A stretch of DNA of 39,822 bases from Candidatus Omnitrophota bacterium. Its GTDB lineage: Bacteria; Omnitrophota; Omnitrophia; Omnitrophales; Danuiimicrobiaceae. The stretch is taken from NCBI GenBank assembly GCA_023247075.1, contig JAHFHD010000004.1, positions 1 through 39,822 of the forward strand, read 5' to 3'. The position numbers and the translations under genes were made by a program. Positions 9,907-39,822 of the stretch are shown piece by piece (positions within the stretch are counted from its first letter, which is position 1; each line of letters opens with the position of its first letter). Below the pieces are notes generated by a model. That model was not told the DNA's origin, searched no databases, and saw only the letters and a list, made by a program, of their open reading frames with translations.

Positions 9907-12366
9907 ATGAGCGAAACCATGGTGGCAACTAAAAAAAATTCAAGCAGCAAAGATGAATCCCCAAAAGCAGAAGCAAAAGCTTTTGAATCTAAATACGGGC
10001 ATTTCACAAAAGATGGCCGTGAGTATGTCATTACACGGCCGGACACGCCGCGTCCATGGGTCAATGTGCTTTCAAATGGTGATTATGGCGCGATTGAATC
10101 ACAAACCGGTTCCGGATTTTCGTGGCGCGACAATTCCAATCTTTCAAGAATCACGCGCTGGGAACAGGATTTAATTCGGGACAACTACGGCAAATACTTG
10201 TACCTTCGAGACCGAGACTCAGGTAATTACTGGTCTGCAACCTTTAAACCTTGCATGCCCAACTTCGATTTTTTTGAAGCGAGATACGGATTTGGCTACC
10301 TAATCTTAACCAGTGTTTTAAATGAAATCCGCGCAGAGAAAACGGTATTTGTGCTTCAAAATGAACCAGCCGAAGTTTGGCGTCTTGTGCTTACTAATGA
10401 ATCCGACCGGACACGCAATTTGAGCGTGTTCAGTTATTTTGAATGGTGCCTTGGAAACGCAGCCGACACGCATCGGGAATTTCAAAAAACATTTATCGAA
10501 ACCTGGTTTGACGCAAAACTCGGAGCGTTGTGGGGAATGAAACGCGCAGCACTTGTGCCGGGTTTTATTTCAACCGGTTTGTCAGAAAATCCGCTCACGG
10601 CTTTTCTGGCGCTTGCCAACGTCAAACCTGCCGGATTCGAGGGGGCAAAGGAAAACTTTTTAGGTCGCTACGGCGAAATGCATTCTCCCGAAAGTGTTCG
10701 GCTTGGAAAATTAACAAACACAACCGGAAAACATTATGACCCAATGGCGGGCCTTCAGGCCGATGTTTCTCTTGAGCCCGGAGAAAGCAAAACGCTCATC
10801 TTTGTACTGGGCGGAACGAGCGACCAAGCGCAAGCTGCACGAATTGTGAAGCAGGTTGCCAGTGAAGCAAAAGCAGAAACTGCATTAAATGAGGTCAAAC
10901 TATTTTGGCGGGAACTTTTCGACCAAACGATGATTGACACGCCTGACGAAGCGATGAATTTTATGACCAACGGTTGGCTCAAATATCAAGCAATTGCCGG
11001 CCGAATTTGGGCGAAATGCGGTTATTACCAATCAAGCGGCGGTTATGGATTCCGCGACCAACTTCAAGACAGCCACATTTTTCTTCCGCTCAAACCTGAG
11101 TGGACGAAGAAACAAATTTTGGTGCATGCCGAACAGCAATTTGCAGATGGAACGGTGCATCACTGGTGGCATCCGGGAACTAAAATTGCGGCGGTGACTC
11201 ACATGACCGATGATCTTCTGTGGCTCGCGTTTCTCACGCTCCATTATTTGGAAGAGACCGGGGACATGGCGATTTTAAACACCAAGGTTAATTTTTTGCC
11301 GGACCCAAAAACAAAAAAAGTGACAAGCGCCACGCTTTACGACCATTGCGCAAGAGCAATTGATTGCGTGCTTGGCCGGTGGTCAAAGCGCGGACTTCCA
11401 TTAATTGGTGAAGGGGACTGGAATGATGGGTTGAGCCACGTGGGCCTGAAATGGAAGGGCGAATCGATTTGGCTTGGACAATTTCTGTACGGAATTCTTC
11501 AGAAATTTGTACCTCTTTGCGAGCTCAAGAAAGAACGCGCTCGTGCGGCCAAATATTTGAAACGTGCGGAAGCCCTTAAAACAGCCATCAATAAACACGG
11601 CTGGGAAGGCGACCGTTACATTGGCGCAACCCGAGACGATGGCCGTCCACTCGGAAGCAAAACTCAAAAAGAAGGGAAAATTTTCTTAAACACCCAGACA
11701 TGGGCGGTCATTCAAAATGCAGCGACGCCAGAACGGGCAAAAATTTGTATGGAGACAGCAGAGAAACTTCTATTTAAAAAATATGGTCCGCTTCTTCTAA
11801 CGCCTGCCTACACGGTAACGGATCCAACCATCGGTTACCTTTCCCGGTATGCGCCTGCTGTTCGGGAAAACGGCGGCCTTTACACGCATGCCGGCACATG
11901 GGCAATTCAGGCGCTTGCGATGATGGGTAGTGGTGATAAAGCGCATGAGGTGTATCAAAGTTTTTCGCCGATCTTGAGGAGTTCTGACCCAGATCTTTAT
12001 TTCGTGGAGCCTTATGTGTTGCCTGGAAATGTGGATGGACCTGAATCACCACACTTTGGCCGCGGCGGCTGGACTTGGTACACGGGCGCCGCCGGTTGGT
12101 ATTTTAGAGTCGTACTGGATTATGTGCTTGGAATCCACGCCACTTTAGATGGACTTCAAATCAATCCCAGCATTCCAAAAAAATGGGATGGATTTAAAGT
12201 GAAACGTCTCTTTAGGGGCGCCACCTATGAAATCGCGGTTCGGAATCCGAACCACGTTTCATCCGGGGTCAAGAAAATAACAGTTAATGGCGAGCCCATC
12301 GAAGGAAATGTTTTAAAACCACTTAGTGAAAAGGGTCCACACAAGGTAAGCGTAACACTTGGGTAA
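9907..12366 (+). CDS. GH94 glycoside phosphorylase (cellobiose phosphorylase/NdvB-like)
   Basis: TPRPWVNVL, YQSSGGYGFRDQLQD, GDWNDG (catalytic Asp), RENGGLYTHA and GGWTWYTGAA motifs. Confidence 0.93.
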   Translation: MSETMVATKKNSSSKDESPKAEAKAFESKYGHFTKDGREYVITRPDTPRPWVNVLSNGDYGAIESQTGSGFSWRDNSNLSRITRWEQDLIRDNYGKYLYLRDRDSGNYWSATFKPCMPNFDFFEARYGFGYLILTSVLNEIRAEKTVFVLQNEPAEVWRLVLTNESDRTRNLSVFSYFEWCLGNAADTHREFQKTFIETWFDAKLGALWGMKRAALVPGFISTGLSENPLTAFLALANVKPAGFEGAKENFLGRYGEMHSPESVRLGKLTNTTGKHYDPMAGLQADVSLEPGESKTLIFVLGGTSDQAQAARIVKQVASEAKAETALNEVKLFWRELFDQTMIDTPDEAMNFMTNGWLKYQAIAGRIWAKCGYYQSSGGYGFRDQLQDSHIFLPLKPEWTKKQILVHAEQQFADGTVHHWWHPGTKIAAVTHMTDDLLWLAFLTLHYLEETGDMAILNTKVNFLPDPKTKKVTSATLYDHCARAIDCVLGRWSKRGLPLIGEGDWNDGLSHVGLKWKGESIWLGQFLYGILQKFVPLCELKKERARAAKYLKRAEALKTAINKHGWEGDRYIGATRDDGRPLGSKTQKEGKIFLNTQTWAVIQNAATPERAKICMETAEKLLFKKYGPLLLTPAYTVTDPTIGYLSRYAPAVRENGGLYTHAGTWAIQALAMMGSGDKAHEVYQSFSPILRSSDPDLYFVEPYVLPGNVDGPESPHFGRGGWTWYTGAAGWYFRVVLDYVLGIHATLDGLQINPSIPKKWDGFKVKRLFRGATYEIAVRNPNHVSSGVKKITVNGEPIEGNVLKPLSEKGPHKVSVTLG

Positions 12367-12396
12367 TTTTTCAAAGCTTTAATGCTAAGGTATTAA

Positions 12397-12425
12397 TTGA
12401 CTAGGTTTTCAAGCAGCACTATAAT
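12397..12425 (+). promoter_or_regulatory. Near-consensus sigma70 promoter
   Basis: TTGACT-N17-TATAAT upstream of the CDS at 12489. Confidence 0.75.
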
Positions 12426-12488
12426 CAACACACTTTTTTAAAGCTTTTAATTCTTCTCAAAAGAAGTTAATTTACACTCATCAATTTA

Positions 12489-14492
12489 ATGGCTCTGGAA
12501 TTATTTTCCAATTTAAAAGTCAGGGCCGCATTCTTGCTCTTTCTCAGTATGGCAAGCTGTCCAAGTCTAATTTTGGGCGCTCCATTTGATGAAATCTCAC
12601 CACATAAAAATTTTGCCTCAAACAGTAAGTTTCAGGTGATTGATGACTTTGATTCTGGCATTTCTCAAAGTCATGTACAGACAAAATGGGAAATGCGCGG
12701 GTCTGGGGGTTCTGAGATTTCAGCAACCTCCATATCCGAAGATGGTTTTAAAAAATGGGGAAGAGCTGCACAATTAAATTACACCATCTCAAAACACAGC
12801 AGCGTAGAATTTTTCGTGCCGCTTGAGGGGCTTGACGTAAGCCGAGCAAAAGGGCTTATGCTTCTTGTTAAAACAGAAGAACTGAATACACTAGGCAACA
12901 TTACAGTGTCGCTTTCTGACATGGCTGGACATCAAAGAGCAGCAGATTTGAAGCAATTTGTGATGACGCCTACTCCAAAAACAGTTCAATCTGGGTGGAG
13001 TGTAGTTGATGTCCCAATTCAGAAATTCCAATTGCTGGACTTAAGCCGCCTTGAGCGGCTTACTTTCTTGATTGAAAGCGAAAATGCGAGCCATGGGCAA
13101 ATTACTTTTGATGAGCTTGCGTTCTTTGGCACGGGCGACCTTGTATTTGATTCTCATCGGGACAATTTGATTGCATTCCCCAAACAAACTGTCCAGTCAA
13201 AGAGACGCGAGGCGCTTTTGCGTCCCCAAGCCGACGCAACATTTTTTATGGAAATTGCCAAAGATACGTGGGGATATTTTAGAGACGAGACAGACCGCGA
13301 CACAGGGCTTTTGGTTGATCACATCCGGCTTGGGAAACAAAAAAGCATCGGAAGTTATATCAGCCCCACCAACATTGCTTTTTACTGGCTTGCGTGCGTG
13401 GCTGCAAGCGAATTGGAGATTATTTCAAAGCAGGAAGCCATAAAACTTGTTCGAAAAAGCTTTGAGTCTTTTAAAAAGCTGGAACGCTGGGAAAATGGAT
13501 TCCTTTTTAATTTTTATCAAACCAGGAGCTCAATTCCCACACGGCGCTATGTTTCTACGGTTGACAATGGCTGGCTTGCAGCCGCACTTGTTGTTTTAAG
13601 GCAGGCATTTCCAAATGAGTTTGGCGCGGAAGCAACTGCTTACCTTGATGAACTCGATTTTTCAAAATTTTATGACTCAAAAAACGGCCAGCTTCGAATC
13701 GGTTATGACGCTGACAAACATGCATATGCGCCTTATCACTACGGCCTTTTGGTCACTGAAGCGCGCATTGCAAGTTACGTTGCAATTGGAAAAGGAGACA
13801 TTGGCCGCGAGCATTGGGCGAAAATGTACCGAACCCTTCCCGGCTCTTGGGAGTGGCAAAAGCAAGCGCCCGGGGGAGCCGAGAAAACTCTTTTTGGCGT
13901 ACCTGTTTTTGAGGGTCATTACACTCATGCCGAACACTCATTTGTTCCAAGCTGGGGTGGTTCGCTCTTTGAATTTCTAGCACCAACTTTAGTGGTTGAT
14001 GAGCAGGCGTTTGCGCCAAAAAGTTTGGGAAAGAACAATCGATTGGCAGCCCAACTTCATGTAGAATATGCGCTGCATGAAAAAGGCTACCCAGTTTGGG
14101 GGCTTGCGCCATGCGCCATTCAAAACGGAAACGGATGGAGTTACCGAGAATACGGCGCGCCAGAGCTTGGCGCAAAAGGGTATTCGGATCTCGGGATTGT
14201 TGCCCCTTACGCATCTTTGTTAGCAATTGAAATTGATTCTGACGCGGTCAGTCGGAATGCGCGTGAATTTCTGAGCCGTTACAAAACCATTTATGGGCCT
14301 TACGGGTTTTATGATTCAGTTCAGGTTTCAAATAGCGGGATCAATCCCCAGTATCTTGCGCTTGACCAGGGGATGATTTTTATTGCCATTGCAAACTATT
14401 TAAAACACGGCACGATTCGGAACTACTTTCACCAAGATCCGGTTGGAAAAGTAGTTCAGGAGTTGATTCAAGAAGAAGAGTTCTTGCTGTGA
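12489..14492 (+). CDS. Secreted DUF3131/'glucoamylase'-type glycoside hydrolase (GH144/GH189 beta-1,2-glucan clan) with N-terminal CBM-like domain
   Basis: Signal-like N-terminus; SPTNI, YVSTVDNGWL, EARIASY, SWGGSLFEFL, GPYGFYDS and YLALDQGM motifs resemble the cyclic beta-1,2-glucan synthase middle domain and GH144. Confidence 0.8.
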   Translation: MALELFSNLKVRAAFLLFLSMASCPSLILGAPFDEISPHKNFASNSKFQVIDDFDSGISQSHVQTKWEMRGSGGSEISATSISEDGFKKWGRAAQLNYTISKHSSVEFFVPLEGLDVSRAKGLMLLVKTEELNTLGNITVSLSDMAGHQRAADLKQFVMTPTPKTVQSGWSVVDVPIQKFQLLDLSRLERLTFLIESENASHGQITFDELAFFGTGDLVFDSHRDNLIAFPKQTVQSKRREALLRPQADATFFMEIAKDTWGYFRDETDRDTGLLVDHIRLGKQKSIGSYISPTNIAFYWLACVAASELEIISKQEAIKLVRKSFESFKKLERWENGFLFNFYQTRSSIPTRRYVSTVDNGWLAAALVVLRQAFPNEFGAEATAYLDELDFSKFYDSKNGQLRIGYDADKHAYAPYHYGLLVTEARIASYVAIGKGDIGREHWAKMYRTLPGSWEWQKQAPGGAEKTLFGVPVFEGHYTHAEHSFVPSWGGSLFEFLAPTLVVDEQAFAPKSLGKNNRLAAQLHVEYALHEKGYPVWGLAPCAIQNGNGWSYREYGAPELGAKGYSDLGIVAPYASLLAIEIDSDAVSRNAREFLSRYKTIYGPYGFYDSVQVSNSGINPQYLALDQGMIFIAIANYLKHGTIRNYFHQDPVGKVVQELIQEEEFLL

Positions 14493-30993: not shown

Positions 30994-33900
30994 ATGCAAG
31001 GACGTTTTTTAAAGTCTGTTTCACTCATCACCGCTGCTGTATTTTCCATCACCCAATTTTCATTTCCTGAACGTTTAAACGCTTCGGTCATTCCTTCTCC
31101 CGCATTTAATTTTGAACAGGCATCTTCGCGAGTTAGCGCTGCCGCACCTTTTCGACTCTCCATTCCCAAAGAACTTGCTGCAATTAACAACATTCATTCT
31201 GGAGTTGGGCCAAAGTTAATTCATATTCAAACTTCACACATGAGTTTTGAGGCCCAGAAAAAAATCAAAAGCATTTTGAAACACCTTGAGAAAGAAGAGG
31301 GAATCAAAACACTTTTTTTAGAAGGCACTGCTTTTAAGCTAGACCCATCACTCCTTCGCTTTTTCCCAACCCGCCCGGATTTAAACGAAAAAGCGCTTGA
31401 GCAACTCTCCCAAAAATCCTTAGTTGATGGAGCAGAACTTTTTCTTGCTGATTCTCAAAACGCAAGTGCGTACGGCATTGAAGACGCAGAAGTTTACAAA
31501 AAAGGCACCGAAATTTTTCGCGACGTTTTGCGCGCGCGCCGCGGGTCAGAGCAATTCCTTAAAGATTTTGACCAGCAAATTTCCCGCATTGCAAGCACCC
31601 GGCTAAATCCAAAGCTAAGGGATTTTTTAAAAGAGTGCAGCCGCTACACGAGCGGCACAAATAGCCCGAGCAGCCAGATTTCATTTTTAAAACAGCGCGC
31701 ACTAGAAACGCTTGAGCTTGAGTTTACCAATCCGGTGAATCAAGTTGATTGGCCCATGCTCGTGCGGCTTACAAAATTAGAAAAATGGGAAAAGGAAATT
31801 AATCAAGCCGCACTCAAAAAAGAAAAAGATTTGTTTCTTGCGGTAGTCTCAAAAAAACTTACCCCATCTCTTGCGGCTTTAATTGAAGAATTGCTTTCCT
31901 CGCCGCTTGTGTCTTCAACCAGGTCAAGCGACGGCTTCGACCTAATTTTTGAAGAGATGGCGGACAAGCTGCCTCGAGATTTTAATTACGCAGCTTACCC
32001 AAATCTAAATCGTGCCATTGGTTTTCGCCTGTTAAATAGCGAAATCGACCCCTCTTTGCTCATGAAGGAAGTCGAACAGCTGAGTCAAAAAATCGCAGAG
32101 TCACTGGCGCAAAGCCAAACCGAGAAAAAAATCCTCGACGTGCTTAACAAACATCGTTTGCTTCGAAAACTATTTGCACTTGAGCTCGGCCCAGATGATT
32201 ACGAAGAAATTCAACAGCTGTCATTGCGAGAAGCCCCGAATGGGGCGACGAAGCAATCTCAGTTCTGGATTGCTTCGTCAACACTTGGAACGCTTCCTCG
32301 CAATGACGAAACGTCAAAGCGCTTACGGGCATATTTTCAACCATCTCAGCTAATTCAAGAATTGCTCGCACTTTGCGTGTCCGAACATGTAAGCGTTGCT
32401 GCATTTGACAGTCATCTAGGAGAAATCGACCAGTTGTTTCGCCGAGCACTTGATTTTTACGCGGTGGTCAAAGAGCGTGACCAGTGCATGATTCGAAATG
32501 TGGAACGCCGATTTAAAGAAACGGGTGTGGATAAAGCAGTGGTAATTACCGGCGGTTTTCACTCACGACCGTTTCAGGAATATTTTTCAAAACACGGTTA
32601 TCGCTACGCGCTTCTTTCGCCTAATTTTACTTCTGGTTCAAAAGAAGATTCTGAAGAGGGCAAAGCGGGTTACATCCGATTCATTCTTGAAACTGACCCG
32701 CGGAAGCTCGAAACTCAAACCCACGCAGCCACTCCAATTGCGCAGGACGAAGTTAATTTCGCGCCGCTTGGTTATGATTTCAAAATTACCGCAACACTTG
32801 TCCGGGATGAGTTGAGAGCCACCTTCGGGACAACGCCTTCATCAGCCTTTAACCCAAAGGTTGCTGCCCATTGGGGGATTCAACTTCCCGCTTCCGTTAT
32901 TGATAAAGGAATTGCTCCTCGCCAGGAAGTGCGCTCCTCAGCGCATAGCTCAAAAGCGCCGGAGCCCGCTCGTCAACACCGCCAAGGGATACGCGGTTTT
33001 TACAATGAAGAAATTAGCTTTGTGGAACTTATGTTGATTACCGCTTTATTGTCCTTTCTGTCTTTAGGTTTTTTCCCATTTTTTGTTGCGCACGGCATTC
33101 AACAAAAGAATAGATTTTTAGTTATCGTAGCTGGTATCCCAAGCGCTTTAGCAGCAGTTGGATTTTTGGGAGCGCTTGCCTATTTTCTCAACTGGAGTAT
33201 CCAACGACGCTTGAAAAAGAGCAACACCACAATTGCCGGCGAAGTTCCTAGAAAAGAACTTCGCGCGAGCAAAAACCCACTGTCTTTAGGAAAGTATTTA
33301 GCAGGAACGGCGTTTAGATTAGCAGCTTCCTTCGCGCTTGCGGGAACGCTTTTTGTAACATCCGTTTTTGCTCAATCAGATTCTCAAGGACAAACCGGCC
33401 GCCCAACAACTAATTCAACTGCGCTGGTTCGACAAAGAAAATCGGACGGCGGATCGACGATTGAAATTTTTAGCCCAGACGGAGCAAAAATAAAGCTCAC
33501 AAAACTTGTTGCTCAGTCCATGAAAACGCCAGGCGGCGATTGGTCGCTAATTTATTCCGAGCCCGGCAGCCGTTTTCTTAGCGGCCGCGCTCAAGCGCGT
33601 GATTTAGAGACAAAGGAGTCGGGATGGGTTACAAGGTTTCAAGCGGAGCTGCCCGAGTTTGATTTGATATTTACCTTTACGAGTCAAAAGCCCGACCAAT
33701 TTGAAGTTACAGTTACTGGCATGAACGGCAGCCAAATTAACCCCCGTCCTGAACTGCGGAGTAAATTATCCTCATCACGCCCCAAAATCCATCCCAAACA
33801 ACCTCCTTGGAGGTTTGTTAGGAGGCTTAAGGAGATCGCCGCCAGTAAAACTGTCTCCACGAAAGGCAGCGTTCCTCCTGCACGGGTTTTTACGGGGCGA

Positions 33901-36900
33901 AGAAATTTATCGAAAACGAAGCAAGCGCCTCAACCGGCGGTTTTCCACCCGAGAAAAAAATGGGCATCTACCGTATCAGCCAAAAGACAGTTGGACAGAA
34001 ACAGAGAAAGAGAAGGGCCTGCAAAAACATATCAACAAAAGGGCCTGGGCGCGAAGGGTGGAAGCACAGGGAACGGTCACACACGACAACTCAGCGGACG
34101 CATGGGGCGGCTAAGGGCTTTTGTGGTTCAGTTTGGTTTTGGATTTCTTATGTGGTCGGCTGATTTGGTTGCTCAGGACGCACCTCAACAAGGCCAGAAC
34201 TTTTTGCGTTCGTCTGGAGAGGTTATCAATCCAAACGCAGCTACCTACGCGCACGCTGAACTGCGAAGCAGCGAAAGGCTGGTTCAATTAATTGATTCCC
34301 GAAGCGCATGGGAAGACGTTGACAGTTTTGTAAAACAATTTGAGCGTCAAGCTAAAAAGCGCATTGCGGCAAATTTAATGAGCACAAGCGGTCCATTACT
34401 TAACGAGTTTTTTGAGGGACTTGATTTTACCCATGACTGGATTCATTTCTCTAGTTCTCACAAAAATCGGCTAATCATTTTGAAATTTGGAAAAGTGGGA
34501 ACAACTAAAACAGGAGCGAGCGTTTACACAATAGAACTGGATTTCAAAAATCAAAAATCGTACGTTGCGAAAAACTCGCTGGATAATCTTTTATTTAAGC
34601 CGCTTCCCATCGAACTCAATCAATTACGCGCAATCGAATTTGATTTTAAGCGCGGCATAATCCATTTCAAATTCACTTCACCGCCCAATCTTGAATCTTT
34701 AAAAAGCGCACTCGGGCCAGATTTATTTGAGCGAGTCAAGTTTGAGATGTTTGAAGAAGTGACACACGGCAAAGTTTCTGTGCCGCAGGATTTTCAAACG
34801 TACGCTTCGCTTTTGCAAAATGAACGTCGCCACAGCGCGCGCGACTTTGCAGACTATGTGAATGCCATGTTAATTAAGTATCCAGACGGCAGAACCACTG
34901 GCGCCGACCAAAAGTTTGATGATGAAGTGACGGCTCTTCATCCAGAAATCGCAACACTTTGGTTTATGGTTTCAATCGCTAGCAAGGTGGTTGAAAATCC
35001 AGCCGCTCCACCGAACAGTTATTTTGGAAGCTTTGAGCAAGCTTATTTGCGGCGTTTCGACAAATACAAAATGTTTGAAGCAACAAGAAAACAAATACAC
35101 ACAATCCAAGTTTCCCGAAAAAGTAGAGAATTCCCCAAACTTGTTTTTCCTACTCTAAATATCTCGCTCCCATTGACTCAAACGGACACACTTCAATTTG
35201 AATTGGAAGCTGGCAATCGTCAAGAGCTTCGGAGCAATTTATTTCAATTCAGCAGAAGGGGAATTATCTTTGCATCTTTAATGGGTTTTATTGCTGTAAG
35301 CGAGCTTCTTACACCTGCAGTCGCTAGCGATGAAAGTTTGCCAGTTACTGATGAGCAAACAGTGAGCACTCAAAGCGAAAGCCCCGCTCCTTTAACAGAC
35401 CTGTATCCGTTGGTTCAAGCGCCATCTGATTTGGCACAGGCCATCCCGTATCTTGAAAAGAAACTGACTGAGTTTGAAATCGAAGGGGGCGGCGGTCTGC
35501 TCCGCTCCTATTATGTTGATGATCGAGACAAACAGTTTCTCGAATTTAAAAATATCACCTGCATTTATGATCAAGCTATTGCGATCGTCGCGATGACCGC
35601 TTTAGGCCGGCAGGAAACAGCAGAGCGTTGGATGCGGGCATTAATTCGATCTGCACATCCTGACGGGCAATTTCCATTTTTTGTTCGCTACGACAAGAAT
35701 GAGTCAGATCCCTACTACAGGACAGGCTCCCAAATGTGGGCAGCATATGCGATGGGATTTTTCTTACAAAAATTTCCAGAAAGTTCGCTAACTCCTCACA
35801 TTAAAGCGGCACTCAAAAAGCACTTGGATGCCATGATTAAAAACTATTGGCTTGAAGGAAGTGAACAAGGCACTCAGGAAGATACTTTCACCGGAGGCAA
35901 AGGCCAGTACCCAAATTACCCAAAAACGGAAGGTTTCGATCCAAAACCTAAGCAGTGGAGCAGCACGAAGCAGAATATCGATGCTTATTTTACTTTGGAG
36001 CTAGCCGGCAGGGTTTTGGGCGACTCAAAATATACCGCCATCGCTCAGCGCGTCAAAAAGGCTCTCCTCAATCGACTCTGGAACAATGAAAGCAATGAAG
36101 CGTATCAAGGGGTTACGGGCCCTGCCGGTCAAGATAAAAATCACGCTCTGGATGTCGGTTCCTGGTACAGCATCTTTGCTTCTTTGGTTGGTGAACACGA
36201 TCGCGCGAAGCTGGCTTTAAAAAGCACGGATCAGTATCTGGTTGTTGAAGAAGGCGTCCGTGGATACACACCTTATCTAAAGGAAAGAGGATATCCTGAA
36301 GCGGCGGGCGGAATTTGGGGCGAGGGAACAGCAGGCGTCCTCCTCGCAAAAAGATTGGCGCCGCGACCTGCAGAGACAGAAGTTGTAGATGATGTTGAGA
36401 ATTTATTAAAGCTGATGACAGACCATGGCCTTTTGGATCACACCCAAAATGTCGAGATTGATGATTTAAAACGTTTGCCTTCTGCGGTCTCGACAGCCTG
36501 GACTTTAATCGCTCTCCATCCGAATGGGTTTTGGAACACGGATGTGCCTCCGCTAGGTGCAAAACCCGTGGAAGCACCTGCCAGAGAAATTCGTAAGGAA
36601 CTTCGAAGCAATCCATTTCAATTCAGCAGAAGGGGAATTGTCTTTGCATCTTTAATGGGTTTTATTGCTGTAAGCGAGCTTCTTACACCTGCAGTCGCTA
36701 GCGATGAAAATTTACCAGCCGCTGATGAGCAAACAGTGAGCGCTCAAAGCGAAAGCCCCGCTCCTTTATTTGACATACCGTTGGCTGGATTTGATTCTCA
36801 AATAGGCAGGGTTGTTAATAAAAAGCTTACAGTGACGAAGGGTAGCGACGGCAAAATAACGGCTAGGATTGTTGAAGACTTTGAATTGTCAGAAACTCCA

Positions 36901-39822
36901 AAACGTGAAGCGGCCCCCGCCATATCTACTTCTCCCCAAAAAATTGTTTTGACCGGACAAACTCAGGATGAAAAAAAAGTGTCTTTCATTGGCTCGAAAG
37001 GCGAGAAAAATAACTACGCTGGAATTGTCATTTTTGAAACACAGGTTACTTCCGAGTTTTTTGACGCCCCCCTGCTTCTTAAAGAGATGTACACAGTATC
37101 AAGCGACCAGGCTTCTGAAAAGAATAGTGAATGGTATGACAATAATAAAGTCTTGGTTCAAAAAATTAATTCAGACGGTTCCATCGAACTCTTCAGTCCC
37201 AAGAAAAGTTTGACGGTGCATATTTCAAAAGAAGATGCCAACGGCCGCCAAAGTTTAACCATCCACACCCCTTCTGCTCAAGGTAATGTTGAGGGAAAAG
37301 CATGGACTGAAAAATCCTCAGGACTTGTGGAAGGTGTTAATGGAAATAGCTTCAATAACCCCGGGTGGAGCCTCTTCGTTAAAAGGCTCGAAGATGGGTC
37401 GCTCAAGGTTTTTCTTACGAACCTGTATCCATTGGTTCAAGCGCCATCTGATTTGGCGCAGGCCATCTCGGATCTTGAAGCGAAACTGATTGATTTTGAA
37501 ATCGAAGGAGGAGGCGGCCTCCTTCGTTCTTATTACGTCAATGACCGAGACGAGCAATATTTGTGGGTTAAAGACATCACCTACATTTATGATCAAGCGG
37601 CTGCAATAGTTGCGATGACTGCTTTAGGCCGGCAAGAAATAGCAGAACGTTGGATGCAGGCGCTGATTCGGTCTGCACATCCTGACGGGCAATTTCCATT
37701 TTTTGTTCGCTACGACAGGGTTAAGTCAGATCCTTACTACAGGACAGGCTCCCAAATGTGGGCAGCATATGCGATGGGATTTTTCTTACAAAAATTTCCA
37801 GAAAGTTCGCTAACTCCTCACATTAAAGCGGCACTCAAAAAGAACTTGGATGTCATGATTGAAAAGTATTGGCTTGAGGGAAGTGAACAAGGCACTCAGG
37901 AAGATACTTTCATGGGAGGCAAAGGCGTTTATCCAAATTACCCAAAAACGAAAGGCTTCAATCCAAACATTAAAAAAGAGTGGAGCAGCACAGAGCATAA
38001 TATCGATGCTTATTTTGCTTTGGAGCTAGCCGGCAGGGTTTTGGGTGATTCAAGATACGCTGCCATCGCTCAGCGCGTCAAAAAGTCTCTCCTCAATCGA
38101 CTTTGGAATAATGAAAGCAATGAAGCGTATCAAGGAACTAGCCATGAAGGTCCAGATAAAGATCATGCTCTGGACGTCGCTTCTTGGTACAGCCTTTTTG
38201 CTTCTTCGGTCGGGGAACACGACCGCGCGAAGCTGGCTTTAAAAAGTGCGGATCAATATCTGGTTGTTGAAGAAGGCATCCGTGGATACCCACCCTATCT
38301 AAGGGAAAAAGGATATTCTAAAGCGACGGGCGGAGTTTGGGGCGAGGGAACAGCAGGCGTCCTCCTCGCAAAAAGATTGGCGCTGCGACCTGCAGAGACA
38401 GAAGTTGTAGATGATGTTGAGAATTTATTAAAGCTGATGACAAACCATGGCCTTTTGTATCACACCCAAAACGCGGCTTATGATTCAAAACATTTGCCTT
38501 CTGTGGTCTCGACAGCCTGGACCTTAATCGCTATCCATCCGAATGGGTTTTGGAATACGGATGTGCCCATGTTAGGCGCAAAACCCGCGGAAGCACCTGC
38601 CAGAGAAATTCGTAAGGAACTTCGGAACAATCCGTTTAAATCCAGCAGAAAAAGAATTGTTTCCGCATCTTTAGCAGGTCTTATTGCTGTGGGCGAGTTT
38701 TTTACACCCGCACCCGTTTCACAAGCCTCTAGCGATGGAAGTTTACCAGCTACTGATGAGCAAACAGTGAGCGCTCAAAACAAAAGTCCCGCTCCTTTAT
38801 TTGAAATGCCGTTCGGCGCTGAGCTTGACTCTCAAACAGGCAAAGTTATTAATGGAAAGCTTATGGTGACGAAAAATGGCGGCGGCAAAATAACGGCTAG
38901 GATTTTTGGCGGCCCCGTTTCCGAGACACTCATTAAAGAATTTGAATTGTCAGGAATTCCAGAACGCGAAGACACTCCCACTACTCCTAACTCCCCAAGA
39001 AAGATTGTTTTGACCGGACAAACTCTGGATGGAAAGAAAGTGTCTTTCATTGGCTTGAAAGGCAAGAAAAATAGCTACGCCGGCGTTTTCATCGTTGAAA
39101 CCGAAGTCACTTCCGAGTTTTTTGACGCCCCCGTACGTCTTAAAAAGATGTACACAGTATCAGGGGGCAAGGTTTCTGAAAAGGGCAGTGAATGGTATGA
39201 CAAAAATAAAACCTTAATTCAAAAGACTAATCCAGACGGTTCCATTGAATTATTCGATTCCAAGAAAAGTTTGACGGTGCATATTTCAAAAGAAGATGCC
39301 AACGGCCGCCGGAGTGTAACCACCCTCTTTTCAGGTGAAATCCCTTCTGCTCAAGGCTATGTTGAGGGAAAAGCATGGACTGAAGAATCCTCAGGGCTTG
39401 TGGAAGGTGTTAGTGGAAATAGCTTCAACAACCCTGGGTGGCGCCTCGTCGTTAAAAGACTCGAAAATGGGTTGCTGTTTGTGTTACGGAAGTATGTGAA
39501 TACTGACGAAAGCGGCGCTCCAGACCCCCGCTCGTTGTTACCGCCTCTTCCGGCGCAAGATAAGCAAACACCTAATACTGACGAACGGCGTGAGTTGCGC
39601 AGCAGTTCCAAAATAAATTTTTCAAACGCAATACCGGACAGCCATCAGGCCGCAGAATTCCAAACCGTTTCTTTGGGGGGCAAAAATTTAATTATTGGTC
39701 CCAACGGAGCTATGACAAAAATAAAATTAGGAGAATCTTTTGACGATGCCATTGCACGTTACCTTGAAGAAAGACAGCCCGAAAGCGATTCCCTTTCCGC
39801 GCAATATGCCCGCACCGGCGGC
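30994..39822 (+). CDS. Giant multi-module protein, 3' truncated by the window (at least 2943 aa); putative self-processing polyprotein
   Basis: Hand translation of frame +1 found no stop from ATG 30994 (MQGRFLKSVSLITAAVFSITQFSF...) to the window end; in-frame TAA stops lie just upstream. Omitted from the ORF track. Existence of the ORF is secure; function is inferred. Confidence 0.93.
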   Translation, partial: MQGRFLKSVSLITAAVFSITQFSFPERLNASVIPSPAFNFEQASSRVSAAAPFRLSIPKELAAINNIHSGVGPKLIHIQTSHMSFEAQKKIKSILKHLEKEEGIKTLFLEGTAFKLDPSLLRFFPTRPDLNEKALEQLSQKSLVDGAELFLADSQNASAYGIEDAEVYKKGTEIFRDVLRARRGSEQFLKDFDQQISRIASTRLNPKLRDFLKECSRYTSGTNSPSSQISFLKQRALETLELEFTNPVNQVDWPMLVRLTKLEKWEKEINQAALKKEKDLFLAVVSKKLTPSLAALIEELLSSPLVSSTRSSDGFDLIFEEMADKLPRDFNYAAYPNLNRAIGFRLLNSEIDPSLLMKEVEQLSQKIAESLAQSQTEKKILDVLNKHRLLRKLFALELGPDDYEEIQQLSLREAPNGATKQSQFWIASSTLGTLPRNDETSKRLRAYFQPSQLIQELLALCVSEHVSVAAFDSHLGEIDQLFRRALDFYAVVKERDQCMIRNVERRFKETGVDKAVVITGGFHSRPFQEYFSKHGYRYALLSPNFTSGSKEDSEEGKAGYIRFILETDPRKLETQTHAATPIAQDEVNFAPLGYDFKITATLVRDELRATFGTTPSSAFNPKVAAHWGIQLPASVIDKGIAPRQEVRSSAHSSKAPEPARQHRQGIRGFYNEEISFVELMLITALLSFLSLGFFPFFVAHGIQQKNRFLVIVAGIPSALAAVGFLGALAYFLNWSIQRRLKKSNTTIAGEVPRKELRASKNPLSLGKYLAGTAFRLAASFALAGTLFVTSVFAQSDSQGQTGRPTTNSTALVRQRKSDGGSTIEIFSPDGAKIKLTKLVAQSMKTPGGDWSLIYSEPGSRFLSGRAQARDLETKESGWVTRFQAELPEFDLIFTFTSQKPDQFEVTVTGMNGSQINPRPELRSKLSSSRPKIHPKQPPWRFVRRLKEIAASKTVSTKGSVPPARVFTGRRNLSKTKQAPQPAVFHPRKKWASTVSAKRQLDRNREREGPAKTYQQKGLGAKGGSTGNGHTRQLSGRMGRLRAFVVQFGFGFLMWSADLVAQDAPQQGQNFLRSSGEVINPNAATYAHAELRSSERLVQLIDSRSAWEDVDSFVKQFERQAKKRIAANLMSTSGPLLNEFFEGLDFTHDWIHFSSSHKNRLIILKFGKVGTTKTGASVYTIELDFKNQKSYVAKNSLDNLLFKPLPIELNQLRAIEFDFKRGIIHFKFTSPPNLESLKSALGPDLFERVKFEMFEEVTHGKVSVPQDFQTYASLLQNERRHSARDFADYVNAMLIKYPDGRTTGADQKFDDEVTALHPEIATLWFMVSIASKVVENPAAPPNSYFGSFEQAYLRRFDKYKMFEATRKQIHTIQVSRKSREFPKLVFPTLNISLPLTQTDTLQFELEAGNRQELRSNLFQFSRRGIIFASLMGFIAVSELLTPAVASDESLPVTDEQTVSTQSESPAPLTDLYPLVQAPSDLAQAIPYLEKKLTEFEIEGGGGLLRSYYVDDRDKQFLEFKNITCIYDQAIAIVAMTALGRQETAERWMRALIRSAHPDGQFPFFVRYDKNESDPYYRTGSQMWAAYAMGFFLQKFPESSLTPHIKAALKKHLDAMIKNYWLEGSEQGTQEDTFTGGKGQYPNYPKTEGFDPKPKQWSSTKQNIDAYFTLELAGRVLGDSKYTAIAQRVKKALLNRLWNNESNEAYQGVTGPAGQDKNHALDVGSWYSIFASLVGEHDRAKLALKSTDQYLVVEEGVRGYTPYLKERGYPEAAGGIWGEGTAGVLLAKRLAPRPAETEVVDDVENLLKLMTDHGLLDHTQNVEIDDLKRLPSAVSTAWTLIALHPNGFWNTDVPPLGAKPVEAPAREIRKELRSNPFQFSRRGIVFASLMGFIAVSELLTPAVASDENLPAADEQTVSAQSESPAPLFDIPLAGFDSQIGRVVNKKLTVTKGSDGKITARIVEDFELSETPKREAAPAISTSPQKIVLTGQTQDEKKVSFIGSKGEKNNYAGIVIFETQVTSEFFDAPLLLKEMYTVSSDQASEKNSEWYDNNKVLVQKINSDGSIELFSPKKSLTVHISKEDANGRQSLTIHTPSAQGNVEGKAWTEKSSGLVEGVNGNSFNNPGWSLFVKRLEDGSLKVFLTNLYPLVQAPSDLAQAISDLEAKLIDFEIEGGGGLLRSYYVNDRDEQYLWVKDITYIYDQAAAIVAMTALGRQEIAERWMQALIRSAHPDGQFPFFVRYDRVKSDPYYRTGSQMWAAYAMGFFLQKFPESSLTPHIKAALKKNLDVMIEKYWLEGSEQGTQEDTFMGGKGVYPNYPKTKGFNPNIKKEWSSTEHNIDAYFALELAGRVLGDSRYAAIAQRVKKSLLNRLWNNESNEAYQGTSHEGPDKDHALDVASWYSLFASSVGEHDRAKLALKSADQYLVVEEGIRGYPPYLREKGYSKATGGVWGEGTAGVLLAKRLALRPAETEVVDDVENLLKLMTNHGLLYHTQNAAYDSKHLPSVVSTAWTLIAIHPNGFWNTDVPMLGAKPAEAPAREIRKELRNNPFKSSRKRIVSASLAGLIAVGEFFTPAPVSQASSDGSLPATDEQTVSAQNKSPAPLFEMPFGAELDSQTGKVINGKLMVTKNGGGKITARIFGGPVSETLIKEFELSGIPEREDTPTTPNSPRKIVLTGQTLDGKKVSFIGLKGKKNSYAGVFIVETEVTSEFFDAPVRLKKMYTVSGGKVSEKGSEWYDKNKTLIQKTNPDGSIELFDSKKSLTVHISKEDANGRRSVTTLFSGEIPSAQGYVEGKAWTEESSGLVEGVSGNSFNNPGWRLVVKRLENGLLFVLRKYVNTDESGAPDPRSLLPPLPAQDKQTPNTDERRELRSSSKINFSNAIPDSHQAAEFQTVSLGGKNLIIGPNGAMTKIKLGESFDDAIARYLEERQPESDSLSAQYARTGG
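32220..32307. repeat. RPE-like palindrome inside the giant CDS, read in frame
   Basis: gtcattgcgag...gacgaagcaatc...gattgcttcgtc...ctcgcaatgac, translated as SLREAPNGATKQSQFWIASSTLGTLPRND. Confidence 0.88.
35398..38625 (+). repeat. Intragenic duplication of domain A (~35398-36606 and ~37421-38625), six-hairpin glycosidase-like
   Basis: Two ~1.2-kb copies from LYPLVQAPSD to REIRKELR with long identical DNA tracts. Confidence 0.9.
36607..39480 (+). repeat. Intragenic duplication of signal peptide, linker and beta-rich domain B (~36607-37420 and ~38626-39480)
   Basis: Shared KIVLTGQT, TSEFFDAP, SLTVHISKEDANGR, VEGKAWTE and GNSFNNPGW; a third signal/linker copy lies at 35233-35394. Confidence 0.9.

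Follow-up and report, generated by a model that had tools for sequence, protein, structure and literature searches.

Giant open reading frames (ORFs) are a hallmark of the Omnitrophota, and they raise a simple question: are the giant proteins cut, and if so, where and by what? The function of such genes is called poorly understood in the partial text of PMC10066038, and missing cleavage-point information blocks the analysis of giant proteins (10.1101/2023.11.21.568195). We analyzed a stretch of 39,822 nucleotides from a Candidatus Omnitrophota bacterium (GCA_023247075.1, contig JAHFHD010000004.1, positions 1–39,822), called the window below, which belongs to a 2.28-Mb source genome of 186 contigs that is 95% complete. 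The window holds a giant ORF (30994–39822, + strand, as are all features of this ORF given below) that is open over 2943 codons and continues past the contig end. We found that (i) its N-terminal domain, here called the head, very probably has the fold of the TIKI/EreA/ChaN superfamily, to judge from structure models; (ii) the catalytic-type residues of the head are invariant among its homologues; and (iii) a five-residue motif behind the head, R-x-E-[LVIMAS]-R, marks the boundaries of protein modules. We propose, with confidence somewhat short of even, that the head acts as the in-built endopeptidase of a bacterial polyprotein and cuts it at these R-x-E-x-R junctions.

The head spans residues 51–575 (31144–32718) and follows a putative Sec-type signal peptide (residues 1–30; 30994–31083) with a positive n-region, a hydrophobic core and an ...RLNA end. 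A first-pass annotation of the window, made from the letters alone, had reported a signal-like N-terminus, an ordered set of motifs matching that of TraB proteins, a long helical insert, and junction motifs that start only beyond the head. A direct check of the ORF translation recovered all of its motif coordinates. LIHIQTSH starts at residue 75 (31216) and places His82 at 31237; LFLEG, from residue 107, places Glu110 at 31321; YGIE, from residue 160, places Glu163 at 31480; ERDQCM, from residue 494, places Arg495 at 32476; and AVVITGGFH, from residue 515, places His523 at 32560. The first residues of the ORF, MQGRFLKSVSLITAAVFSITQFSFPERLNA, are indeed signal-peptide-like, and the same feature recurs among homologues. 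Searched exhaustively by HMMER with the head, 1.84 billion representatives yielded 6215 clusters at E ≤ 1e-3, of which 642 passed E ≤ 1e-30; the top 150 of the 6215, mostly proteins of 1000–7800 aa with an N-terminal head match, are the 150 homologues referred to below. A hydrophobic segment with an AxA-like end lies within the first 70 aa in 121/150, with a mean of 3.0 K/R before the segment vs. 0.44 after it.

An AlphaFold2 (AF2) model of the window head, built from a 27-sequence alignment (predicted local distance difference test [pLDDT] 83, predicted TM-score [pTM] 0.77), contains a six-stranded alpha/beta core. The N-lobe (31174–31488) contributes model strands 24–29, 56–59 and 108–111, ending in H82, E110 and E163. 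An all-helical insert of ~345 aa (31489–32523) then splits the core; its helices occupy model residues 115–460, corresponding to protein residues 165–510, between strands 108–111 and 464–469, as anticipated by the first-pass annotation. The insert is a possible lid or substrate-binding domain. R495 and M499 (32476–32490) lie on the helix preceding the first strand of the C-lobe (32524–32691), in which strand 464–469 is followed by GGFH with H523 and by a second strand, 487–493. In this model H82, E110, E163 and H523 are all placed directly after parallel core strands, and the stretch between the head and the first junction is a disordered linker.

The model was compared with 48,161 chains by VIA-align, whose stated background is Z 7–8. 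Superfamily chains made up five of the top six matches (ranks 1–2 and 4–6): HopBA1 (5T09; Z 9.2, 168 residues aligned), EreC (6XCQ; Z 9.2, 165 residues), ChaN (2G5G; Z 8.4, 163 residues) and Bcr135/136 (2QGM and 2RAD; Z 8.4, 148 and 152 residues). PMT (2EBF) aligned at Z 7.0 over 145 residues. An unrelated methyltransferase reached Z 8.5 with only 97 residues aligned. When Foldseek candidates were re-aligned to the window model, the top five were all superfamily members, and the next scored 7.5 and 6.6. Since Z values of 8–10 stand only modestly above the background, the test was repeated on the head of a 19%-identical paralogue (pLDDT 87.5). Superfamily chains again occupied ranks 1–4 and 8, with HopBA1 at Z 10.1, EreC at 8.8, ChaN at 8.5, 2QGM at 8.4 and 2RAD at 8.1; RRSP (5W6L) aligned at Z 6.3 over residues 3883–4058, its catalytic C2 domain. 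Over both models, HopBA1, EreC, ChaN and Bcr135/136 gave Z 8.1–10.1 with 148–184 residues aligned. Both lobes of the head aligned onto single compact domains of 217–255 aa, and the helical insert was left out of the alignments to the TIKI-superfamily chains (217–408 aa; 152–168 residues aligned).

HopBA1, Bcr135, ChaN, PMT and RRSP are assigned to the TIKI superfamily in the partial text of PMC6254334, which defines a 2His/2Glu site with a His-Glu pair 28 residues apart both in Bcr135 (H85/E113) and in RRSP (H3902/E3930). The TIKI motif definitions used here come in part second-hand from that text. The head carries such a pair and, after a later core strand, the second His. H82 and E110 are 28 residues apart, and their equivalents keep this spacing in 126/127 homologues. 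Alignment of profiles by hhalign paired the ERDQCM...GGFH of the head (RDxxM...GGFH) with the VRNREM...GAGH of a 40-sequence TraB alignment (RNxxM...GAGH), and the C-lobe taken by itself matched that alignment at E 1.9e-4 (probability 47%). The pairing and the 28-residue spacing bear out the ordered motif set.

Other results count against the fold assignment. Pfam and NCBIfam scans of the whole ORF gave no match for the head, and phmmer and profile searches with the head against PDB sequences returned either none or unrelated proteins at E ≥ 0.022. Foldseek against the PDB found nothing at E ≤ 0.001 for either model: the helical insert dominated the search with the window model and HopBA1 came at rank 50, and the paralogue model placed EreC first (E 0.055, probability 0.75). 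In hhalign, the whole head reached the TraB alignment only at E 0.0031 (probability 10%), and the N-lobe was not significant (E 0.13). The second Glu of the RRSP site, E3900, two residues before the His (H-2), is Thr80 in the window head; among the 150 homologues this position is T in 97, E in 28, D in 9, S in 7 and N in 3. The invariant E163 of YGIE may take the role of E3900. On balance, and as far as models can tell, we consider membership of the TIKI/EreA/ChaN superfamily highly probable.

The first-pass annotation had called the head TraB/GumN/Tiki-like. Two models uphold the superfamily fold; the narrower assignment to the TraB/GumN family does not stand. The window head had no match to PF01963 (TraB) at E ≤ 10 and did not reach its gathering cut-off of 26.8 bits. 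One of the 27 aligned heads matched PF01963 at 16.6 bits, and the HMM run against the whole genome hit only two head C-lobes (22 and 18.8 bits). PF04187 (ChaN; gathering threshold 27.7 bits) was hit below threshold by 6/27 heads (best E 0.011); re-scanned matches scored 14.6–16.2 bits, on the C-lobe only, and the best of the genome scan 16.5 bits. Among the 27 heads the weak Pfam matches were to ChaN (6), DUF5694 (5), DUF5682 (3) and TraB (1), and every match that was re-checked was sub-threshold and lay on the C-lobe; weak as they are, these signals are consistent with the fold found by structure comparison. PF05139 (erythromycin esterase) was not among the Pfam matches listed for these heads. 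Since the sequence matches to Pfam TraB and ChaN are sub-threshold, the head is a new family of the superfamily and falls outside Pfam TraB/GumN. Nor is the label metalloprotease justified, because RRSP and EreB act metal-free; in the partial text of PMC6254334 both are listed among metal-independent members, in contrast to TIKI, which is metal-dependent.

Set beside its relatives, the head combines familiar parts in an unfamiliar setting. Among the Ere and Bcr proteins (6XCQ; 2RAD, 3B55, 2QGM), which are top structural matches (Z 8.1–9.2, 148–165 residues aligned), we find the same N-terminal His with, in Bcr135, a Glu 28 residues on, the second His after the last core strand, and a helical insertion between the lobes. 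However, there is no significant sequence match, the insert of the head is as long as ~345 aa, the known Ere substrate is a macrolactone ester and not a peptide, and Ere proteins stand alone and are not known to head giants. HopBA1 is the best structural match to both models, and ChaN attracts most of the weak Pfam matches; ChaN is a haem binder, and neither of the two is known from a giant protein of modular build. With the TraB/PrgY/GumN proteins (PF01963; E. coli YbaP) the head shares the motif order H...E...G-I-E/D...R-N/D-x-x-M...G-x-x-H and an extracytoplasmic location, which for the head is predicted, but the heads miss the Pfam cut-off, the N-lobes do not align significantly, and canonical TraB occurs in 1/151 genomes of the phylum vs. 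the head in 151/201.

The residues that define the head are conserved far beyond the window. In the 27 aligned heads, whose pairwise identity falls to 17–20%, H82, E110, G111, G161, E163, Y168, R495, G520, G521 and H523 are conserved at ≥90%. Among the 150 homologues, gaps excluded, H82 is retained in 147/147, E110 in 149/149, E163 in 150/150, R495 in 145/145, M499 in 131/145 and H523 in 143/143. The five key polar residues are thus invariant wherever aligned, and the motifs are not chance matches. H77, the first His of HIQ, is not conserved and is Y, L or F in distant paralogues.

In the source genome, 47 stretches match the head domain; by phmmer they fall in 29 frames, mostly very long, and N-lobe matches begin within about the first 200 residues. 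The head heads 22 giant frames with a complete N-terminus, and it is the only module common to ~25 giant multi-enzyme proteins of this genome. What follows it is interchangeable: whole enzymes, regulators and membrane proteins occur as payloads, and 12/24 of the genome's own polyproteins share nothing outside the head at E ≤ 1e-6. The head is present in 151/201 sampled genomes of the phylum, in 11/11 of those from the window's own family and in all sampled genomes of each family of its order listed; open frames reach 15,709 aa in this sample. Three heads of the source genome are split across two adjacent frames, on contigs C130 (4367–5134 onward), C186 (5174, 5944) and C13 (10631, 11710); these are frameshifts, assembly errors or pseudogenes.

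Downstream of the head, the short motif R-x-E-[LVIMAS]-R recurs, mostly as RxELR in the window and as RSExR across the family. Across the 150 homologues we counted 617 instances of R.E[LVI]R vs. 35 expected from shuffles (17-fold), and the pattern is present in 101/114 homologues of at least 1500 aa. An unbiased count of 4-mers downstream of the head in 131 homologues returned, as its top 22, only fragments of RSE[MVLAS]R. Within the source genome, when only frames of 900 aa or more whose N-terminus is complete are counted, the 22 frames with a head hold 106 motifs in 61,431 aa (at least two motifs in 17 frames), whereas the 35 frames without a head hold 11 in 49,705 aa (at least two in 3 frames, one of them a split head). 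The first-pass annotation had suggested checking whether homologues of the head lead proteins with a recurring short motif, and these counts answer in the affirmative. A cruder test, in which the DNA pattern MGNWSNGARNTNMGN was counted against the reversed pattern, gave ratios of 0.42–0.74 in 8 head-less genomes, hence no motif excess there, and 0.35–2.39 in 8 head-bearing genomes (≥0.8 in only 4/8); the test is insensitive and gives no support.

The information content is limited to the five motif residues, which are flanked by small residues. The codons of the motif use all synonyms at near background frequency. We therefore rejected a repeat at the DNA level as its source; selection on the motif acts at the protein level.

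The placement of the motif is as informative as its frequency. In 13 homologues with annotated payloads, 0/100 motifs fell within Pfam envelopes, which cover 12.8% of the length (P about 1e-6). Among the homologues, a triose-phosphate isomerase (TIM; 1172–1432) is bracketed by sites at 1160 and 1437, and a three-domain PutA (1815–2993) by sites at 1802 and 2999, with no internal site. Homologue P0010 reads, with site positions between modules, helix-turn-helix (HTH), 773, receiver, 920, glutamate dehydrogenase (GDH), 1485, CsrA, 1618. In the source genome a citrate synthase (1257–1645) lies between sites at 1242 and 1663, and enoyl-CoA hydratases and a cobalamin adenosyltransferase are likewise framed by sites. 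The motif therefore marks protein or module boundaries, and the giants have the recurring boundary motif that is asked of a polyprotein.

In the window protein the motif first appears at residue 604, with no R.E[LV]R upstream, in line with the earlier remark that junctions start only beyond the head. This first junction is RDELR (residues 604–608; 32803–32817), 81 aa past H523, and RQEVR follows at residues 643–647 (32920–32934). A Kyte-Doolittle scan shows a transmembrane-like pair at residues 673–701 and 707–730 (33010–33183). Then come RKELR at residue 753 (33250–33264), with a hydrophobic segment at 776–794 after it; RPELR at 918 (33745–33759); RQELR at 1409 (35218–35232), followed by a Tat-like signal peptide, FSRRGIIFASLMGFIAVSELLTPAVA, with its core at 1423–1441; RKELR at 1867 (36592–36606), followed by the same signal-peptide-like segment at 1881–1899; RKELR at 2540 (38611–38625), with a signal-peptide-like segment at 2555–2572; and RRELR at 2865 (39586–39600), beyond which the ORF runs on past the contig end. 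An example of the peptide stretch around a junction is ...AREIRKELRSNPF....

Which enzyme would cut the giants at this motif? The head is the leading, as yet unproven, candidate, and it is co-occurrence and position that point to it as the cutter. We favor the endopeptidase reading because the head is the only universal module, because its catalytic-type residues are invariant, because two superfamily members, TIKI and RRSP, are site-specific peptidases (for RRSP, according to the partial text of PMC6254334), and because the first junction lies 50–206 residues behind the last catalytic His in 111/134 homologues. The proteases that published work puts forward for the giant proteins of Omnitrophota are not candidates here: S8 peptidases were not found in the 95%-complete source genome, and C39 peptidases occur there only in motif-free frames. 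C14 peptidases were not found there either. The head, first in the chain, would be made first and probably translocated first, and hence could fold before its substrates appear; it would then cut at the junction motifs, beginning 50–200 residues behind its C-lobe, and the cuts would release the payload modules.

The nearest precedents are partial. RRSP, an effector of MARTX toxins, and vertebrate TIKI1/2 are proven site-specific endopeptidases, and by analogy we propose such an activity for the head. RRSP shares with the head the fold class and the His/Glu site with its spacing of 28, and it too sits within a giant autoprocessed toxin polyprotein; it differs in having E3900 where the window head has Thr, and in being an effector whose target is host Ras. 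In MARTX toxins, cleavage at the junctions falls to a separate domain, a cysteine protease. With viral polyproteins and MARTX toxins the giants have in common a long ORF whose modules are unrelated, except for one enzyme module that is invariant, and a short junction motif that recurs. The resemblance is one of workings and not of ancestry: the candidate protease fold differs, the payloads here are enzymes and regulators of the cell itself, each genome has ~25 such genes, and for the giants cleavage is only proposed.

Several observations speak against the head as the cutter. Its catalytic activity, a peptide as its substrate, cleavage of the junctions, and binding and cutting of the motif by the head are all things that we infer. 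The superfamily also holds esterases (Ere), the haem binder ChaN and inactive members such as PMT C2, PMT being without the 2His/2Glu set (partial text of PMC6254334). The motif is missing from 13/114 long homologues, falls below 0.7 per 1000 aa in 9 proteins of at least 1800 aa, and occurs fewer than two times in 5/22 of the head-bearing frames of the source genome. Near-motifless giants with a head include P0059, P0043, P0088 and P0152; P0152 and P0059 repeat A.SLG/ASSLG 9 and 3 times, respectively, which may be an alternative delimiter.

Location is the more serious difficulty. The head is predicted to be exported by its Sec signal, while many payloads look cytoplasmic: citrate synthase, TIM, GDH, CsrA, HPr, response regulators and HTH proteins are among them, and 32/114 long homologues have no transmembrane (TM)-like segment after the signal peptide. 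Moreover, N-in signal-peptide-like segments come after 4/8 window junctions, and three of the segments combine an AxA end with a Tat-like SRRG/SRKR motif. Tat-like signal peptides that are almost the same in sequence, SNPFQFSRRGIVFASLMGFIAVSELLTPAVA|SDE, stand right after three junctions (35233–35330, 36607–36705 and 38626–38720) and, as read from the sequence, would become N-terminal only after junction cleavage. Across homologues a signal-like segment follows 80/921 junctions vs. 834/27,600 random positions, and TatC is encoded in the source genome (C19:27041–27664). Signal peptides after junctions, together with TatC, suggest that cleavage precedes export and takes place in the cytoplasm, out of reach of an exported head.

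These observations fit an alternative that we regard as rather unlikely but the strongest of those considered, namely that the head, a TIKI-fold hydrolase, is exported to act on another extracytoplasmic substrate (a peptide signal, an ester, or a component of a prey or host envelope), and that cutting the junctions falls to a second Arg-directed protease, encoded elsewhere and probably cytoplasmic. The classical Sec signal peptide of the head, the cytoplasm-type payloads, the signal segments and TatC that imply release before export, the head-bearing giants without a motif, and the esterases and binders of the superfamily all speak for it. The head would then come first merely since a Sec signal must be N-terminal. 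Yet a module can be exported without coming first, as the internal modules that carry signal peptides show, and the alternative leaves unexplained both why the head is the one universal module and why the distance from head to first junction is short and near-fixed. In addition, no candidate for the second protease was found, the search covering S8, C14 and C39 in one 95%-complete genome.

It is more doubtful still that the motif is no cleavage site at all, the giants being single multi-enzyme membrane-associated chains in which the motif is a linker or docking element and the head a terminal enzyme or anchor. Published work does treat these ORFs as single giant proteins, without cleavage data in the partial text of PMC10066038, and 10.64898/2026.06.07.730766 never mentions cleavage, polyprotein, motif or linker. 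However, the motif brackets complete native proteins, including oligomeric enzymes and a CsrA of ~50 aa, and never lies at the internal domain boundaries of PutA; an information content confined to five residues, with small residues flanking them, is typical of a protease site; and successive N-in signal-like segments without an intervening TM segment make it impossible to thread the protein as one chain. Finally, that the head is a non-catalytic TIKI-fold module, such as a ChaN-like binder or a PMT C2-like scaffold for secretion, tethering or folding, is very improbable: non-enzymatic superfamily members exist and the RRSP-type first Glu is not conserved, but His, Glu, Glu, Arg and His are invariant in the 150 homologues and in ~25 paralogues at ~17–20% identity, and the head family keeps the 2His/2Glu set that PMT is without.

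The payloads of the window protein have a history of their own. From the sequence, the modules at 35233–38610 appear to be recent internal duplications: local alignments show residues 1414–1866 and 1872–2539 to be 84% identical over 451 aligned residues, and residues 1872–2139 and 2545–2830 to be 70% identical. The duplicated modules give weak, sub-threshold (alpha/alpha)6 glycosidase-like Pfam signals (PF17167, PF17389 and PF06202; GH94, rhamnosidase, GDE_C), and further upstream the stretch 9907–14492 holds a genuine GH94 phosphorylase together with a glucoamylase-like gene. Elsewhere in the source genome there are two citrate synthases (C171:15410–16576 and C50:7482–8585), the stand-alone enzyme at 462 bits and a divergent copy, between junctions of a head-bearing polyprotein, at 256 bits; payload enzymes may thus be extra paralogues rather than housekeeping copies.

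The signal peptides of the heads (30994–31083 in the window, and those of P0003–P0034) share a conserved and unusual polar pair, F.x.TQ...P, which lies within the hydrophobic core or closes it, as in AVFSITQFSFP, FVFTQFSP and FIVTQLALP, and the internal segments of the window end similarly (IAVSELLTP). The pair could be the mark of a dedicated targeting or processing step.

Upstream of the giant gene, from which it is separated by a 467-bp gap, the window (437–30526) presents an ordinary context: a porin, pstSCAB-phoU, a deaminase, ndk, a sugar-binding protein, the GH94 phosphorylase and a ROK kinase; sulfate assimilation genes (adenosine 5'-phosphosulfate [APS] kinase, 3'-phosphoadenosine 5'-phosphosulfate [PAPS] reductase, ATP sulfurylase) and an ABC-2 transporter; and a bioB-like radical S-adenosylmethionine (SAM) gene, a ketoacyl synthase and an aminotransferase. 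The sequencing runs on record that contain this stretch are three DNA runs from one groundwater study, with no RNA run among them. In the genome as a whole, 95 stop-to-stop frames of at least 900 aa total 618 kb, or 27% of the 2.28 Mb. The longest (7758 and 7433 aa, on contigs C44 and C59) fill their contigs, lack R.E[LVI]R and appear to be a different class of giant gene.

Our literature search found no paper joining Omnitrophota with the word polyprotein, and the two giant-gene preprints (main text, supplements aside) name neither TraB, Tiki nor polyprotein and do not mention the junction motif. A head enzyme together with a motif that brackets modules makes the questions of whether the giants are cut, where and by what directly testable, and the junction motif is a rule for splitting giants before their structures are predicted and their parts annotated. 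Should the head be a protease, the TIKI superfamily would gain a family, a substrate class and a biological role, all of them new, and the giants would be a rare bacterial case of polyprotein gene expression. Extended to the phylum, and held more tentatively still than the proposal for the head itself, this would mean that a substantial part of the Omnitrophota proteome is encoded in the form of true polyproteins, cut by a Sec-exported TIKI-fold endopeptidase during or after translocation. Dozens of unrelated enzymes, regulators and membrane proteins would be released in this way, and some modules would be re-exported through signal peptides that are N-terminal only after cleavage. Were this true, polyprotein expression as known from viruses would have its counterpart in cells, and the missing cleavage points of the giant genes of this phylum would be supplied.

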